A stretch of DNA of 20,519 bases from positions 1 through 20,519 of the forward strand of contig JASMDC010000054.1 in the NCBI GenBank assembly GCA_030753015.1, read 5' to 3'. The DNA is from Candidatus Undinarchaeales archaeon (GTDB lineage Archaea > SpSt-1190 > JASMDC01). Positions 1 through 6,045 of the stretch are shown one piece after another. A model generated the notes under the pieces. The model did no database searches. It was not told the origin of the DNA and saw nothing but the letters and a program-made list of their open reading frames with translations. Numbering within the stretch: position 1 is the first letter of the stretch; every line of letters starts with the position of its first letter. The position numbers and the translations under genes are program-made.

Positions 1-296
1 TTCTTTGTCCACTCGCTGTAGCCCTTAGGGTGGCGTTCGATCCTCCCCATGAGTGCTTCGATGTCGGCCTTGTTCGCCGCGTCGAAGTCCATCGCCAGGA
101 TCTGGGCCAAGGTCTTAAGGGTGTACACGTACTTGACCGTTCGCGCCAGGCTCAGGCCCTCGGCAGTGCAATGGTCGGCGAAGCTCCGGATGGCCTTCTT
201 GTTGCGCTCGGTGACATCCTCGGCCTTCTCCAGGCCCTTCAAACCGTCCTCGAGCCTCCCTGCATACCCATAGAGCTGCTCCCCTCGCACCGTCAT
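1..296 (-). CDS. Tyrosine recombinase / site-specific integrase, N-terminal (SAM-like) part; continues beyond the left edge
   Basis: Manual translation from ATG at 296 has no stop to the edge: MTVRGEQLYGYAGRLEDGLKGLEKAEDVTERNKKAIRSFADHCTAEGLSLARTVKYVYTLKTLAQILAMDFDAANKADIEALMGRIERHPKGYSEWTK. The pattern 'NK..I..F...C.AEGLS..R..KY...L......DF..A.K.DI.......IE....YSEWTK' is typical of archaeal tRNA-associated integrase N-termini. Starts 58 bp after the tRNA 3' end. Catalytic domain not visible. Confidence 0.8.
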   Translation of the reverse strand, partial: MTVRGEQLYGYAGRLEDGLKGLEKAEDVTERNKKAIRSFADHCTAEGLSLARTVKYVYTLKTLAQILAMDFDAANKADIEALMGRIERHPKGYSEWTK

Positions 297-354
297 GGAA
301 TAACCTAGTCATTCCGGGTAAATAAACATTGTGGCTTCTATTAAATAAGTCGGG

Positions 355-429
355 TGCCCCTGCCGGGATTTGAACCCGGGTAATTGGCTCGAAAGGCCAA
401 CATGATTGACCGGACTACACCACAGGGGC
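355..429 (-). tRNA. tRNA-Glu (anticodon TTC), no encoded CCA
   Basis: Reverse complement GCCCCTGTGGTGTAGTCCGGTCAATCATGTTGGCCTTTCGAGCCAATTACCCGGGTTCAAATCCCGGCAGGGGCA. Acceptor GCCCCTG/CAGGGGC, anticodon arm TTGGC-CTTTCGA-GCCAA, T-loop GGTTCAAATCC. Confidence 0.97.
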
Positions 430-450
430 AGCCCACGTTTGTGCTGAAGG

Positions 451-460
451 TCTTTTAAAC
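451..460 (-). promoter_or_regulatory. Probable TATA box of tRNA-Glu
   Basis: GTTTAAAAGA on the minus strand, about 22-31 bp upstream of the mature tRNA 5' end. Confidence 0.6.
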
Positions 461-471
461 CTAACGCCGCC

Positions 472-590
472 GGGGACCGGGAGGTTACTGAAATTTATTT
501 CAGTAACAGTGGTACGACCTGCCACCCCACCCTTTCTCTTCGACCCCCATGGACCACGGAGGGGCACCCACGTCAGATGACCGTCCACCG
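472..590. repeat. Array repeat copy R1 (right part: core inverted repeat + GC hairpin)
   Basis: GTTACTGAAAT-TT-ATTTCAGTAAC at 484-507 is a perfect 11-bp IR; CCATGGACCACGGAGGGGCACCC at 547-569. Confidence 0.85.
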
Positions 591-607
591 GTACCACCGC
601 AGGGCCC

Positions 608-907
608 TCACCCGCCCCCGAGCTTTCCTTCGTCCTCCGACGCCAGCACGACCTCCCGTGCGAACACTTGCGCCCCGTAGCGCTCCAAAAGACCGATGAC
701 CGTACCGGCTCGATCGCTCGCGACCACCAGCACCGACCGTACGGGCCGCAGGTGCGACACCCTGTGGAGGAGGCCGTCACGCTCGTAGGTGTATCGGCCG
801 TTGTTGGACCTGTCCGTCCAGCCGTAGAGCTCGCGGTCGAGCCTGGTCCTGGCCCTGTCGGAGAGACCGGCGGACGCCAGATCGTAGCAGATGATCGTTG
901 CAAGCAT
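608..907 (-). CDS. Small Cas2/VapD-like (ferredoxin-fold) protein, 99 aa
   Basis: N-terminal beta strand IICYDL then a helix, later RSVLVV, as in Cas2-like folds. Visibly similar to the C-terminal domain of 9394-10035. Fills the space between R1 and R2. Confidence 0.6.
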   Translation of the reverse strand: MLATIICYDLASAGLSDRARTRLDRELYGWTDRSNNGRYTYERDGLLHRVSHLRPVRSVLVVASDRAGTVIGLLERYGAQVFAREVVLASEDEGKLGGG

Positions 908-1100
908 CTCTACAGTAGTATAGTGCGGTGATAGTATGAGAAGCTCTGTATACCCCCCGGCGGGGTACCAGTAACATATAAGTCGGAAAGGGACATCGAG
1001 GATTACTGAAATTTATTTCAGTAATAATGGGACGGTCCGCCAGAGCATGACGCCCCTGCCAGCCCCCATGGACCACTCAGGGGCACCAACGTCAGTTGAT
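904..1100. repeat. Array repeat copy R2
   Basis: GCATCTCTAC..GTGCGGTGATAGTATGA block; TACCCCCCGGCGGGGTAC 951-968; ATTACTGAAAT-TT-ATTTCAGTAAT 1002-1025; CCATGGACCACTCAGGGGCACC 1066-1087. Confidence 0.9.
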
Positions 1101-1193
1101 CGTACGTACAACAGAACGCCCGCCCGCACCCCGCCCCCCAACAGCAAACCATAAATACCGCCTTCTGCGCCGCCGGTCCACAGGACGGCCCAC

Positions 1194-4310: not shown

Positions 4311-4511
4311 CGTCCGATGACGTCCGTGCCCCCGTCCTTGCGCGCATCTCCAATCATACCCTGGTGCAGCGATAGTATGAATTGCTCTGTACACTCCCCG
4401 GCGGGGTAACATGAACGTATAAGTCGGACACAGCAGATCACGGGTTCTTAGTTCAGTAACATGTTGACGCTCCCGTAAGCCCCCATGGACGCGGGGGGGG
4501 CGACAACGTCA
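4311..4511. repeat. Array repeat copy R6
   Basis: CCGTCCTTGCGCGCATCTC..GATAGTATGAA; CACTCCCCGGCGGGGTAA 4392-4409; half-site TTCAGTAA 4452-4459; GCCCCCATGGACGCGGGGGGGGC 4479-4501. Confidence 0.85.
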
Positions 4512-4793
4512 ACGGTCCATCCCCTCATATGCATCGTCCCGGTGCGAGATGCGGGCGATCCAGAGCGTGTCCTTTTCAGCCTGGAAGATGACGCGATGGT
4601 CACCGGAACGTAGTCTGAAGATGCGTTCTTTCTTTGCCGTGCCTTGAAGTTTCTTGATATCGAGCCGGCATGATGGGGATAGGAAGGTGCGGGCGAGCTC
4701 GCGGATATCCTCGATGATCTTGTCCCGGATCGACCCCCGGACCCGGTCGAGCTCCTTGAGGGCCTTGGGATGGATACGGACGCGCAGGCTCAT
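4509..4793 (-). CDS. RelE/ParE-family toxin
   Basis: VRIHPKALKEL...IKKLQG....FRLRSGDHRVIF......IARISHRDDAY, 94 aa. Confidence 0.9.
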   Translation of the reverse strand: MSLRVRIHPKALKELDRVRGSIRDKIIEDIRELARTFLSPSCRLDIKKLQGTAKKERIFRLRSGDHRVIFQAEKDTLWIARISHRDDAYEGMDR

Positions 4794-4978
4794 ATCGCCT
4801 CATCGAGGTCCACGAACTCCTTCTTGGCATCAAGGCGACGTCGGACCTCCTCGATATACGTCTCCCGGTCCACGATGTCGAGGATGCGTGCAAGGATCTC
4901 GTCGTAGGTATCACCCTTCGAGCCCAGGCTCTTGAGTCGGTCACGTACAGCCTCGGAGACGGCGATCGTCGTCGACAT
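4790..4978 (-). CDS. Small antitoxin (RHH-like N-terminus), 62 aa
   Basis: MSTTIAVSEAVRDRLKSLGSKGDTYDEIL with an acidic tail FVDLDEA; ATGA overlap with the RelE gene. Confidence 0.85.
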   Translation of the reverse strand: MSTTIAVSEAVRDRLKSLGSKGDTYDEILARILDIVDRETYIEEVRRRLDAKKEFVDLDEAI

Positions 4979-5004
4979 TATAGTTGTTATGGTCGTTATA
5001 TCTA

Positions 5005-5300
5005 TTATATCCTCCGGTCCGTCACATGGGTTTTCGCCCGTCACCTTGCGCTCATCTCTACCGTTCCATGGTGCGGCGATAGTATGAAAAGCTCTGTATA
5101 CCCTCTTGAGAAGTACTGGATACGTATAAGCGGGACGGGGACACAGAGATTTACTGTACTTTAATTCAGTAATCCCCAACGGATCCGGGACACAGAAAAG
5201 TACTGTACTTTAATTCAGTAATATCGGGATGACCTGCTGCTATGGCTTTCCTTACAACGATCCCGGACCACCGAGGGGCGCAAATGTCCGTGGATCAGGT
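5005..5300. repeat. Array repeat copy R7 with tandemly duplicated core site
   Basis: TACCCTCTTGAGAAGTAC 5099-5116; TTACTGTA-CTTTAA-TTCAGTAA 5151-5172 and GTACTGTA-CTTTAA-TTCAGTAA 5200-5221; degenerate hairpin at 5261-5279. Confidence 0.88.
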
Positions 5301-5311
5301 ATCGACTATGA

Positions 5312-5650
5312 TCAGACGATCTGCCCTTTCAATTCCTCGATGTTCCGCTCGTTCATATCCTTCTTCTTCCCGATACCGGCCTTCCCCCTTCGAATGATAC
5401 CTTCGTCGATGAGGATGTTCTTCATCTGTTCGAAGGGGATCCCCGCGATCTCGGCAGCACGGGATATCGTGATATCTACGGTCCGATATCTCTTCAGAGC
5501 GATGACGAGCCGTTCCTTGGACTTCTGGGAGAGGAAGGAACGAATGGCATCACGGAACAGCTCGGAGCGATTATCATAGTAGCCTTCATCGATAAAGGCC
5601 TGGATATCCTCGCTCATCTTCTTTGGTATCGTTATGGTCACCATGAACAT
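5312..5650 (-). CDS. RHH + UPF0175-like antitoxin, no adjacent toxin
   Basis: VTITIPKKM...YDNRSELFRDAIR...ITISRAAEIAGI; paralog of 3913-4257. Confidence 0.85.
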   Translation of the reverse strand: MFMVTITIPKKMSEDIQAFIDEGYYDNRSELFRDAIRSFLSQKSKERLVIALKRYRTVDITISRAAEIAGIPFEQMKNILIDEGIIRRGKAGIGKKKDMNERNIEELKGQIV

Positions 5651-5730
5651 TCACTATTAATTATTAACATTAACAAATACTAATAACTTTCTATTAGTCT
5701 ATAGGATATCTCCCCCTGACGCGGGAAAGG

Positions 5731-5920
5731 GCCGTCCGATGGCGTCCGTGTCCCCGTCCCTGCGCTCATCTCCACGGTATCATGATGCGCTGATAGTATG
5801 AATAATACTGTATACCCTTGCGCGGGGTACATCTGGATCTACTGAACAATTGTACCGTAGGAATGGGACGACCTGCTGTGATGGCTTCCCTTACAACGTC
5901 CATGGACCACGGAGGGGCCG
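5731..5920. repeat. Array repeat copy R8
   Basis: CCGTCCCTGCGCTCATCTC..GATAGTATGAA; TACCCTTGCGCGGGGTAC 5813-5830; degenerate core CTACTGAA-CAATTG-TACCGTAG 5839-5860; CCATGGACCACGGAGGGGC 5900-5918. Confidence 0.85.
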
Positions 5921-6015
5921 CTACGACAGCCGGACCAATGCTGGACGATCATCCGTATCAGGTAATATCTGAATGTCAAGATGATGTCATCGTTTTGATA
6001 TGGTCCTGTATCTTA

Positions 6016-6045
6016 TTAGTTATATGAATCCTCCGACGGCCGTCC
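6016..6045. repeat. Array repeat fragment R9 (left/promoter end only)
   Basis: TTAGTTATATGAATCCTCCGACGGCCGTCC matches 3349-3378 (TTAGTTATATATATCCTCCGACAGCCGTCC). Confidence 0.75.

Follow-up and report, generated by a model that had tools for sequence, protein, structure and literature searches.

The locus described here lies at the left end of a contig from a Candidatus Undinarchaeales archaeon (JASMDC010000054.1 of assembly GCA_030753015.1, contig C67 in our numbering), which was analysed over its whole length of 20,519 nt and is referred to below as the window. From position 431 to approximately 6064, this contig carries an array of short genes with copies of one repeat between them, and each group of genes that is bounded by the repeat is called a cassette. 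To the left of the array, at the contig end, lie the start of a tyrosine recombinase gene (3-296) and then a tRNA-Glu(UUC) gene (352-430), both of which are on the minus strand. A profile search (nhmmer) found nine copies of the repeat within positions 435-5939, all on the plus strand and with E-values from 1e-27 to 1.8e-61, and a separate repeat search recovered the same families. This bore out the first-pass annotation of this DNA, which had been made from the sequence alone and had described nine degenerate copies in the same orientation that separate payloads of one or two genes and two empty slots. When the profile was run against the whole assembly (117 contigs, 3,845,586 bases, i.e., 3.85 Mb), no comparable copy was found elsewhere, the next match (E = 0.013) covering only the palindrome that is described below; the repeat is thus confined to this locus and not scattered genome-wide.

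The repeat unit is 114-240 bp long, the full boundary module being approximately 240 bp and GC-rich, and it is made up of six modules, A-B-C-D-E-F, the subsets of which differ from copy to copy. Module A is a GC-rich stretch of approximately 50 nt, module B consists of a conserved 17-mer that is followed by a short GC hairpin, module D is a palindrome of 22 bp in which 8-bp arms enclose an AT-rich spacer of 6 bp, and module F is a conserved CCATGGAC...AGGGGC block. When read on the plus strand, modules E-F abut the 3' end of the right-hand gene and modules A-B-C abut the 5' side of the left-hand gene; on the minus strand this means that A-B-C precede a gene and that F-E come after the preceding one. 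The features from the contig end to the distal end of the array, in which E-values of the repeats are those of the profile search and ORF stands for open reading frame, are the following:

3-296, minus strand: N-terminal part (98 codons) of a Xer-like tyrosine recombinase gene that runs off the end of the contig
352-430, minus strand: tRNA-Glu(UUC) (ARAGORN; Rfam tRNA, 64.5 bits)
435-587, plus strand: repeat R1, (B*)-C-D-E-F, its left part being the tRNA promoter region; D at 485-508; E 8e-30
608-907, minus strand: cassette 1, a ferredoxin-fold protein of 99 amino acids (aa)
868-1106, plus strand: repeat R2, the full unit (A)-B-C-D-E-F; D at 1003-1026; E 1.8e-61
1194-2027, plus strand: cassette 2, an acidic 277-aa protein with no Pfam or NCBIfam match
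2020-2133, plus strand: repeat R3, D-E-F only; D at 2034-2057; E 1.2e-27
2148-2729 and 2719-3315, minus strand: cassette 3, HEPN and wHTH-MNT, overlapping ORFs of a toxin-antitoxin type pair
3367-3580, plus strand: repeat R4, A-B-(degenerate D)-E-F; E 7e-53
3586-3738, plus strand: repeat R5, B-C-D-E; D at 3682-3706; E 3e-32; forms an empty slot with R4
3692-3916 and 3913-4257, minus strand: cassette 4, a PIN-like ORF (74 aa, truncated) and an RHH/UPF0175 antitoxin (UPF0175, E 1.4e-10)
4305-4522, plus strand: repeat R6, A-B-C-D-F; D at 4438-4461 with a degenerate left arm; E 5e-51
4509-4793 and 4790-4978, minus strand: cassette 5, a RelE/ParE toxin (PF05016, E 2.5e-10) and a DUF7557 antitoxin (PF24434, E 2.7e-9)
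5013-5173, plus strand: repeat R7, A-B-C-D; E 3e-42
5178-5300, plus strand: repeat R8, C-D-E-F; E 1.3e-27; forms an empty slot with R7
5312-5650, minus strand: cassette 6, a solitary RHH/UPF0175 antitoxin of 112 aa (RHH_8, E 5e-6; UPF0175, E 2.7e-5)
5728-5939, plus strand: repeat R9, A-B-(degenerate D)-E-F; E 4e-53
5974-6064, plus strand: remnant of a further cassette edge at the distal end of the array, 74% identical to 3307-3397

Seven payloads of one or two genes and the two empty slots (R4-R5 and R7-R8) lie between the repeats, the spacing of which ranges from 49 to 2503 bp from unit to unit. Six of the seven payloads are on the minus strand, the gene for the acidic 277-aa protein being the sole one on the plus strand, and the remnant at 5974-6064 resembles the start of an MNT gene plus module A. 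The repeats within one genome are 70-85% alike, and the E-F part of R4 is 90% identical to that of R3. Between module A and the start codon of each cassette there is an AT-rich stretch with TATA-like boxes; judging from these boxes, the cassettes seem to carry their own promoters, which would make the GC-rich module needless as a promoter. The ParE_toxin/DUF7557 pair and the RHH/UPF0175 plus PIN-like pair, with scores above or near the cut-offs, are of the type II toxin-antitoxin kind, and the PIN_4 family was reached (E 0.013) only with the 162-aa sister ortholog of the 74-aa PIN ORF of the window. The Pfam matches for cassette 3 (HEPN, E 7e-4; HTH, E 2e-4; Polbeta, E 0.014) were all below the gathering scores, and the isochorismatase-like fold suggested for cassette 2 (Atlas score 0.90, TM-score 0.51) is no more than a lead. 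Hence, among the payloads that were named in the first-pass annotation, the RelE/antitoxin pair and the two RHH antitoxins stood, HEPN, wHTH-MNT and PIN were matched weakly and the "Cas2-like" gene kept no more than its ferredoxin fold. No integrase remnants were recognised between the repeats in the ORF list or with Pfam.

The structure of the array is not an assembly artefact, since other contigs agree with it across the repeats: an independent metagenome contig was 99.84% identical to positions 1-3202 of the window, and the contigs from four further metagenome runs crossed several repeats with zero differences there. Over 8.3 kb, the four runs (X11, X13, X17 and X19) showed one variant base; the bins without coverage in X17 and X19 are due to low depth and were given no evidential use. 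Among the 24 sequencing runs listed, none was recorded as RNA. At least half of the sampled words from positions 300-6200 were present in 15 sequencing runs, and the runs in which the stretch occurred came from 13 studies of marine or seawater metagenomes from 2017-2025. This spread together with the single variant base points either to an organism that is widespread and very clonal or to a contaminant that the data sets share.

The unit holds little structure besides its palindrome. When six full units were compared with shuffled sequences, no long inverted repeat was found other than the D palindrome, which was clearest in R2, where it scored 38 and the shuffles reached 34 at most; the five remaining units had no self-complementary score above the maximum of their shuffles. 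The folding of two whole units as single-stranded DNA gave z-scores of -1.59 and +0.62, and the unit had no terminal inverted repeats in the comparison with shuffles. A search of Rfam at E ≤ 1 returned no RNA family except for the tRNA and a sub-threshold tRNA-like match. Hairpins of structured RNA or DNA, which had been considered for modules B and F, were rejected as unsupported because the stem mismatches in 17 aligned F modules were not accompanied by compensatory changes. An inverted similarity of A to F and of A to C that had been seen by eye did not exceed the shuffles, and the similarity of module A to the start of the cassette-1 gene was too weak for the former to be considered its relic. 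A CRISPR array was rejected on account of the irregular spacing and the unit length, and Tandem Repeats Finder reported no array in positions 1-6200. The units also lack an attC-type hairpin, and the initial impression that the repeats are neither attC nor CRISPR repeats was therefore confirmed.

The repeat was found in two of the 41 genomes that were searched, namely this one and its only congener (the sister genome, G001), in which an array also adjoins the same tRNA-Glu gene (L013, 7208-15640). A scan of metagenomes with the module-B pattern returned a single contig, which was from the same strain. Using tblastn, orthologs in the sister array were found for three of the nine proteins of the window array, which represent two of the seven cassettes. 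Cassette 1 is 82% identical to its sister ortholog, while cassette 4 corresponds to L013 14553-15493 with identities of 88% for the RHH protein and 47% for the PIN protein, the DNA of this region being 81% identical over 3780-4501. The same search gave no counterpart in the sister array for cassettes 2, 3 and 5, and the RHH protein of cassette 6, at only 38% identity to a sister RHH protein, is a paralog. The other sister cargo comprises another HEPN/MNT pair, two NHL-repeat proteins, a small membrane ORF and an AAA_14/DUF4143 ATPase. The content of the array thus varies between the two species, and so does the window from the array to 8219, from where the conserved right flank extends onward.

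Where the homology between units or between species breaks, it frequently does so at module D. R1 is 85% identical to its sister ortholog overall, and a 31-nt block that is centred on D is 100% conserved. R2 aligns well with its sister ortholog through the right edge of D, beyond which the alignment is lost (blastn break at 1024), so that here a breakpoint between the species falls inside the repeat, as the first-pass annotation had anticipated for a gene-capture array. R3 begins and R7 ends at D, while R4, R6 and the sister unit Rd retain the right arm together with E/F and have a degenerate left arm; in general, the right arm of D and the next bases are nearly invariant and the left arm is often degenerate. 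Copies of D at a spacing of 49 bp number two in the window (R7/R8) and four in the sister genome, and the 49-bp D-to-D unit of R7/R8 is 83% identical to L013 7796-7866. The arms of D occur in two variants and all four left/right combinations were observed; these could be hybrid sites that arose from recombination inside the spacer, but single mutations could give the same result. Across seven full units, the similarity of the left halves correlated weakly with that of the right halves (Mantel r 0.27, p 0.19).

Since these discontinuities cluster at a conserved palindrome, recombination at D is their best single explanation. We therefore put at roughly one half the probability that a Xer-type recombinase drives the turnover of the cassette array by recombining it at the repeat, and there probably at the palindrome, and we infer that D is the crossover site, that a Xer-type enzyme acts there and that the cassettes move as units. 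The small cassettes, mostly of the type II toxin-antitoxin kind, lie head to tail on the 5' side of tRNA-Glu. According to this reading, their gain and loss would result from recombination within the boundary module, in all likelihood at D or next to it, and D has the shape of a tyrosine-recombinase core site. The mobile cassette would be D-E-F-gene(s)-A-B-C-D. The candidate enzymes would be the XerA-type paralogs of the host and, less likely, the neighbouring integrase, and homologous recombination and deletions between modules may add to the turnover. This genome has three XerA-type genes with scores above the curated cut-off (C31:53-2286 and C76:963-1730). Two of the three are in tandem, which is unusual for a chromosome-resolution enzyme.

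Several observations weigh against turnover at D. The two cassettes that are common to both species keep their relative order, two genomes being compared; thus, of the earlier proposal that a related genome would differ in the content and order of its cassettes, the first part held, and the two shared cassettes gave no sign of the second. Orthologous units of the two species are closer to each other than paralogous units within one species (R6 to Rf, 0.89), and in its left part R6 shares 87-89% identity with the sister units Re and Rf. This indicates that the units predate the species split and that there has been no homogenising; by these comparisons the array is old and slow, without visible activity. 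The 6-bp spacers of D differ among most copies, which would hinder strand exchange by a classical tyrosine recombinase, and the truncation of the PIN ORF falls at module E, outside D. Two scans of viral contigs returned no real unit in 14 loci (best nhmmer E 0.076). A search for circular cassettes or repeat-repeat junctions had also been suggested, and the contigs of the four runs named above contained no recombination joints over positions 1-8300, although they are of low depth and represent one clonal strain, so that rare recombination events would escape. Moreover, a few other intergenic sites also have D-type palindromes, in which the arms are conserved and the spacers vary freely. One of these palindromes is found in both species in the same, orthologous intergenic region, where the arms are kept but the spacer is not that of D. 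It is located approximately 50 nt upstream of a TATA-like box, and a transcription-factor operator could fit it equally well.

The same points lend themselves to the main rival, according to which the repeat is a duplicated regulatory or insulating intergenic module (operator palindrome, promoter-like box and 3' hairpins) and the array arose by tandem duplication, its content changing via homologous and illegitimate recombination between these spacers without a dedicated recombinase. The age and divergence of the units, the varying spacers, the truncation outside D, the palindromes at other intergenic sites and the missing excision junctions all agree with such a module. In addition, module B aligns with the tRNA-Glu promoter region of R1 in such a way that the TATA-like box falls over the TATA box of the tRNA. 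However, every cassette already has its own AT-rich promoter stretch by the start codon, and the hairpins of B and F, which lack compensatory changes, do not back a role as a structural RNA or terminator. Unrelated gene families share identical two-sided flanks, which duplication with gene replacement explains poorly, and both the clustering of the discontinuities at D and the conservation of the empty 49-bp D-to-D units in both species speak against it. We consider this explanation possible, but on balance rather unlikely.

A stray unit in the sister genome bears on both the turnover at D and on a further alternative. This unit (C-D-E-F, E 4e-13) is separated from the array by 80 kb and forms the left edge of an insertion of 2.8 kb (C6:94862-97560 of the sister genome; approximately 4862-7560 of L080) that is absent from this genome. 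The NHL gene of the insertion is 71-80% identical to the NHL cargo of the sister array, and an inverted F module also lies inside it. In the interval of approximately 100 bp that matches the insertion site in this genome, there is a perfect 22-bp D-like palindrome of a related family. Two points again count against an insertion by recombination at D: the ends of the insertion are inverted copies (approximately 85 nt) of the 5' regions of NHL genes, which means that its origin was not simple and that another route may have been taken, and its junctions are placed only to the interval of approximately 100 bp and not to the base. The perfect palindromes of this related family, which are 22-24 bp long and have arms that resemble those of D, occur at five sites of the genome, none of which has flanking similarity to the repeat unit; at C37:2611-4538, two copies flank a TnpB gene and a paralog of cassette 1.

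The solitary unit inside an insertion, the likeness of D to this five-site family with its TnpB-flanking copies and the single orientation of all of the copies, as would result from strand-specific transposition, might suggest that the repeat is a small non-autonomous element, i.e., of the miniature inverted-repeat (MITE) or palindrome-associated (PATE) kind with a transposase that acts in trans, which was inserted repeatedly between the existing genes of a toxin-antitoxin island. A MITE as such was rejected because the unit has no terminal inverted repeats and nine of nine copies are at one locus. The broader form of this explanation has to contend with the same facts, as all of the copies lie in one 5.5-kb stretch and none is dispersed, and also with the absence of a long hairpin in the unit, with copies that are cut at differing internal points instead of being whole, with the absence of recognised target-site duplications and with the five-site family not sharing the flanks of the unit. 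We regard it as improbable.

The gene of the tyrosine recombinase (the integrase) lies towards the 3' end of tRNA-Glu, and the array lies towards the 5' end; the integrase starts 55 nt from the 3' end of the tRNA and 189 bp from the first palindrome (485-508), in line with the approximately 190 bp that had been estimated initially. The full protein has 416 aa with a C-terminal zinc ribbon and is encoded by an intact ORF on a bridging metagenome contig (L017), while the rest of the gene in the assembly is on contig C88, with cargo that is different from that of the sister. In the sister genome, a full integrase of 433 aa, to which 81 of the 98 residues in the window are identical, sits across the tRNA from the array. 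The sister protein matched Phage_integrase (E 9e-21) plus a zinc ribbon; over its full length, archaeal XerA was the best family (95 bits vs. a cut-off of 220), and the integron integrase model TIGR02249 gave 36.6 bits vs. a cut-off of 265. The family is very large in archaea, with 1158 matches at E ≤ 1e-10 among the 8000 candidates that were scored and homologs at E ≤ 1e-40 in 48 of 301 genomes.

We surveyed 15 kb around 20 integrase homologs from other archaea, the closer relatives (61-86% identical) being outside this survey. In half of these loci (10 of 20), a tRNA gene in the same orientation was found within approximately 400 nt of the integrase start, which lay at the tRNA 3' end. A repeat array beyond the tRNA was found in none of the 20, each of which had at most one direct-repeat pair vs. 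15 at the sister locus. A scan of genome contigs with the integrase returned the sister and one relative with 34% identity, on a 5.7-kb contig without repeats. In the sister genome, 20 nt of the tRNA 3' end are present a second time, without a mismatch, in the interval from the integrase to the tRNA, and type I restriction-modification genes lie beyond the integrase. No such copy was found at up to two mismatches in this genome, the assembly of which stops short of the far border of the element, except for three 14-nt matches to the 3' terminus that presumably are other tRNA genes.

Because homologs abut tRNA genes without arrays, and because of the tRNA duplicate and the restriction-modification cargo of the sister, the integrase is most likely part of a conventional integrated element, which would lie 3' of the tRNA and be separate from the array; nothing points to it also acting on D. 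The link between the integrase and the array that the first-pass annotation had drawn was thus not upheld, and its own caveat, that the gene might be part of an element integrated at the tRNA 3' end and running leftwards out of the window, proved to be the better reading. The locus resembles tRNA-integrated archaeal elements with Xer-like integrases in having the integrase at the 3' end of tRNA-Glu, a partial tRNA duplicate in the sister and variable cargo, including type I restriction-modification genes, beyond the integrase. Such elements explain the DNA to the left of the tRNA, but not an array on its 5' side without tRNA-derived repeats.

We also doubt that the repeats are attachment-site leftovers of serial integrations at tRNA-Glu by elements of which only one or two genes each would have survived later decay. 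The position next to the tRNA of an integrase from a tRNA-targeting family, homologs of which abut tRNA genes at half of the surveyed loci, the 20-nt duplicate in the sister and the cargo past the integrase that varies in both species would agree with such a history. The array, however, is on the opposite, 5' side, its repeats hold no tRNA sequence and the duplicate of the tRNA end is solely on the side of the integrase, while integrase remnants are missing between the repeats and arrays are missing from all 20 of the homolog loci. An attachment site of 240 bp would also be unusually long. We judge this explanation to be quite improbable.

A canonical integron with IntI and attC has the least in its favour. 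Cassettes that are mostly in one orientation and rich in toxin-antitoxin genes do lie near a tyrosine recombinase gene, and integrons have been reported in archaeal metagenome-assembled genomes, although those in print are of the standard IntI/attC type (PMC9668308). The score of the integrase against the integron model was far below the cut-off, a hairpin of the attC type is missing from the units, the integrase and the array have a tRNA gene between them and most of the cassettes have a promoter stretch of their own, so that we attach next to no weight to this possibility. No attI site could be defined at the locus.

To our knowledge, cassette stores are known in two forms, integrons with IntI and folded attC sites and the Xer-dependent dif (pdif) modules on Acinetobacter plasmids. 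The array is similar to sedentary chromosomal integrons, e.g., the Vibrio superintegron, in its cassettes of one or two genes in one orientation, its lineage-private boundary repeats, its enrichment in toxin-antitoxin genes, its content that differs between related species and the tyrosine recombinase gene nearby. Unlike them, it has neither IntI nor a single-strand attC hairpin, its boundary is a composite of approximately 240 bp with a 22-bp duplex-type palindrome, its cassettes have their own promoter stretches and a tRNA separates the recombinase from the array. The repeats of sedentary integrons are also near-identical, whereas those described here are 70-85% alike. The pdif modules are small, often encode toxin-antitoxin systems and are bounded by short two-arm sites with a 6-bp spacer, the spacers vary between sites and the enzyme is encoded outside the module, in all of which they are like the array. 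The geometry of dif modules is found here in D, with its perfect or near-perfect 8-bp arms and a 6-bp spacer in most copies, and the three XerA-type genes represent the Xer enzyme; there is also a D-like site at a conserved chromosomal position. The array is different in being archaeal and chromosomal, with symmetric sites inside a 240-bp module and one shared orientation.

Archaeal dif sites are recognised as intergenic sites that have inverted arms and a 6-bp spacer and that relatives have in common (PMC2958812). The conserved D-like chromosomal site fits this form and can be considered a candidate only. Its arms are 8-11 bp long and its spacer is not conserved between the species, which is unlike the archaeal dif sites described (PMC2958812). 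It is tempting to go further and to propose an archaeal cassette system that is independent of IntI/attC, in which the 22-bp duplex palindrome D would serve as the crossover for Xer, toxin-antitoxin and defence genes would be stockpiled and exchanged beside a tRNA and palindromic secondary sites would be used occasionally; we put this forward tentatively, as something that may hold but that we would not yet expect to.

Among the payloads, the protein of cassette 1 deserves separate comment because it had initially been called Cas2-like. It had no match in Pfam, NCBIfam or the sequences of the Protein Data Bank (PDB) and none to a Cas2 family, and none of its 43 relatives matched Pfam or NCBIfam. 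A profile search assembled an undescribed family of 413 representatives of approximately 97 aa with no Pfam entry, which was present in 96 of the 401 archaeal genomes that were searched, often as a single copy and in many cases in small genomes; the closer relatives are 79-84% identical. The AlphaFold2 (AF2) model that was built with the 43 relatives had a predicted local distance difference test score (pLDDT) of 93.7, compared with 62.5 for an earlier model from five sequences, and it shows a ferredoxin-like beta-alpha-beta core with an inserted hairpin. The top Foldseek matches of this model were Cas2 proteins, but these were weak (E 0.02-0.05, TM 0.42-0.46), and an exhaustive VIA-align search gave a best Z of 7.3 with unrelated ferredoxin folds. 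A comparison of the family with the gene at 9394-10035 of the window in hhalign gave a probability of 92.9% (E 3.7e-7), and this profile match indicates that the family is homologous to the C-terminal domain of the MNT-type nucleotidyltransferases of HEPN/MNT pairs. The protein is best called a stand-alone form of that domain, i.e., a toxin-antitoxin-associated domain and not Cas2. A role as a recombinase or as a palindrome-binding factor was rejected for a protein that is single-copy in many small archaeal genomes and is a homolog of an MNT domain. Elsewhere in the genome, the family is represented at C37:4221-4514, by a paralog, and at C95:103720-104034.

Further features of the window lie to the right of the array. 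Positions 6158-8218 hold an archaeal-type gap gene, which is single-copy here, and the next ORF, and this stretch is not conserved at the sister locus; a query with the gap protein had no match anywhere in the sister genome. A 2.4-kb segment at 8982-11338 is missing from the sister at this place. The direct repeat of 75-78 bp on either side of it (8907-8981 and 11339-11416) is a duplication of the 3' terminus of the 11338-11991 gene, and the segment carries genes of the MNT/HEPN type at 9394-10035, 10209-10727 and 10724-11335; positions 8907-11416 look like a separate insertion into the 3' end of a gene. At the right contig end, a dispersed repeat of approximately 115 bp (20350-20464) matches at least 12 other contigs, mostly at their ends; it is probably one end of an insertion sequence whose many copies interrupt the assembly. 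As for the organism, the class-level relatives available for comparison have genomes of 0.6-1.2 Mb, while this genome and its sister are of 3.6-3.8 Mb with approximately 60% G+C, and the taxonomic placement looks doubtful.

Taken as a whole, the locus is a cassette array with private boundary modules. The array is old and is shared, with varying content, by the two species known from the genus, and it looks like a gene-cassette store of an undescribed type. Our literature search found no description of archaeal repeat-bounded toxin-antitoxin arrays like this one, which is no proof of their absence. The separation of the integrase from the array matters to anyone who is tempted to annotate the locus as an integron. 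Even if the repeat is a regulatory module, unrelated toxin-antitoxin modules would share one portable pair of flanks, which bears on how defence islands are assembled. If turnover by recombination at the repeat is true, D is a short candidate recombination site that is open to testing, and a different boundary site in an archaeal chromosome would mean that the keeping of toxin-antitoxin and defence genes in cassettes has had more than one origin.

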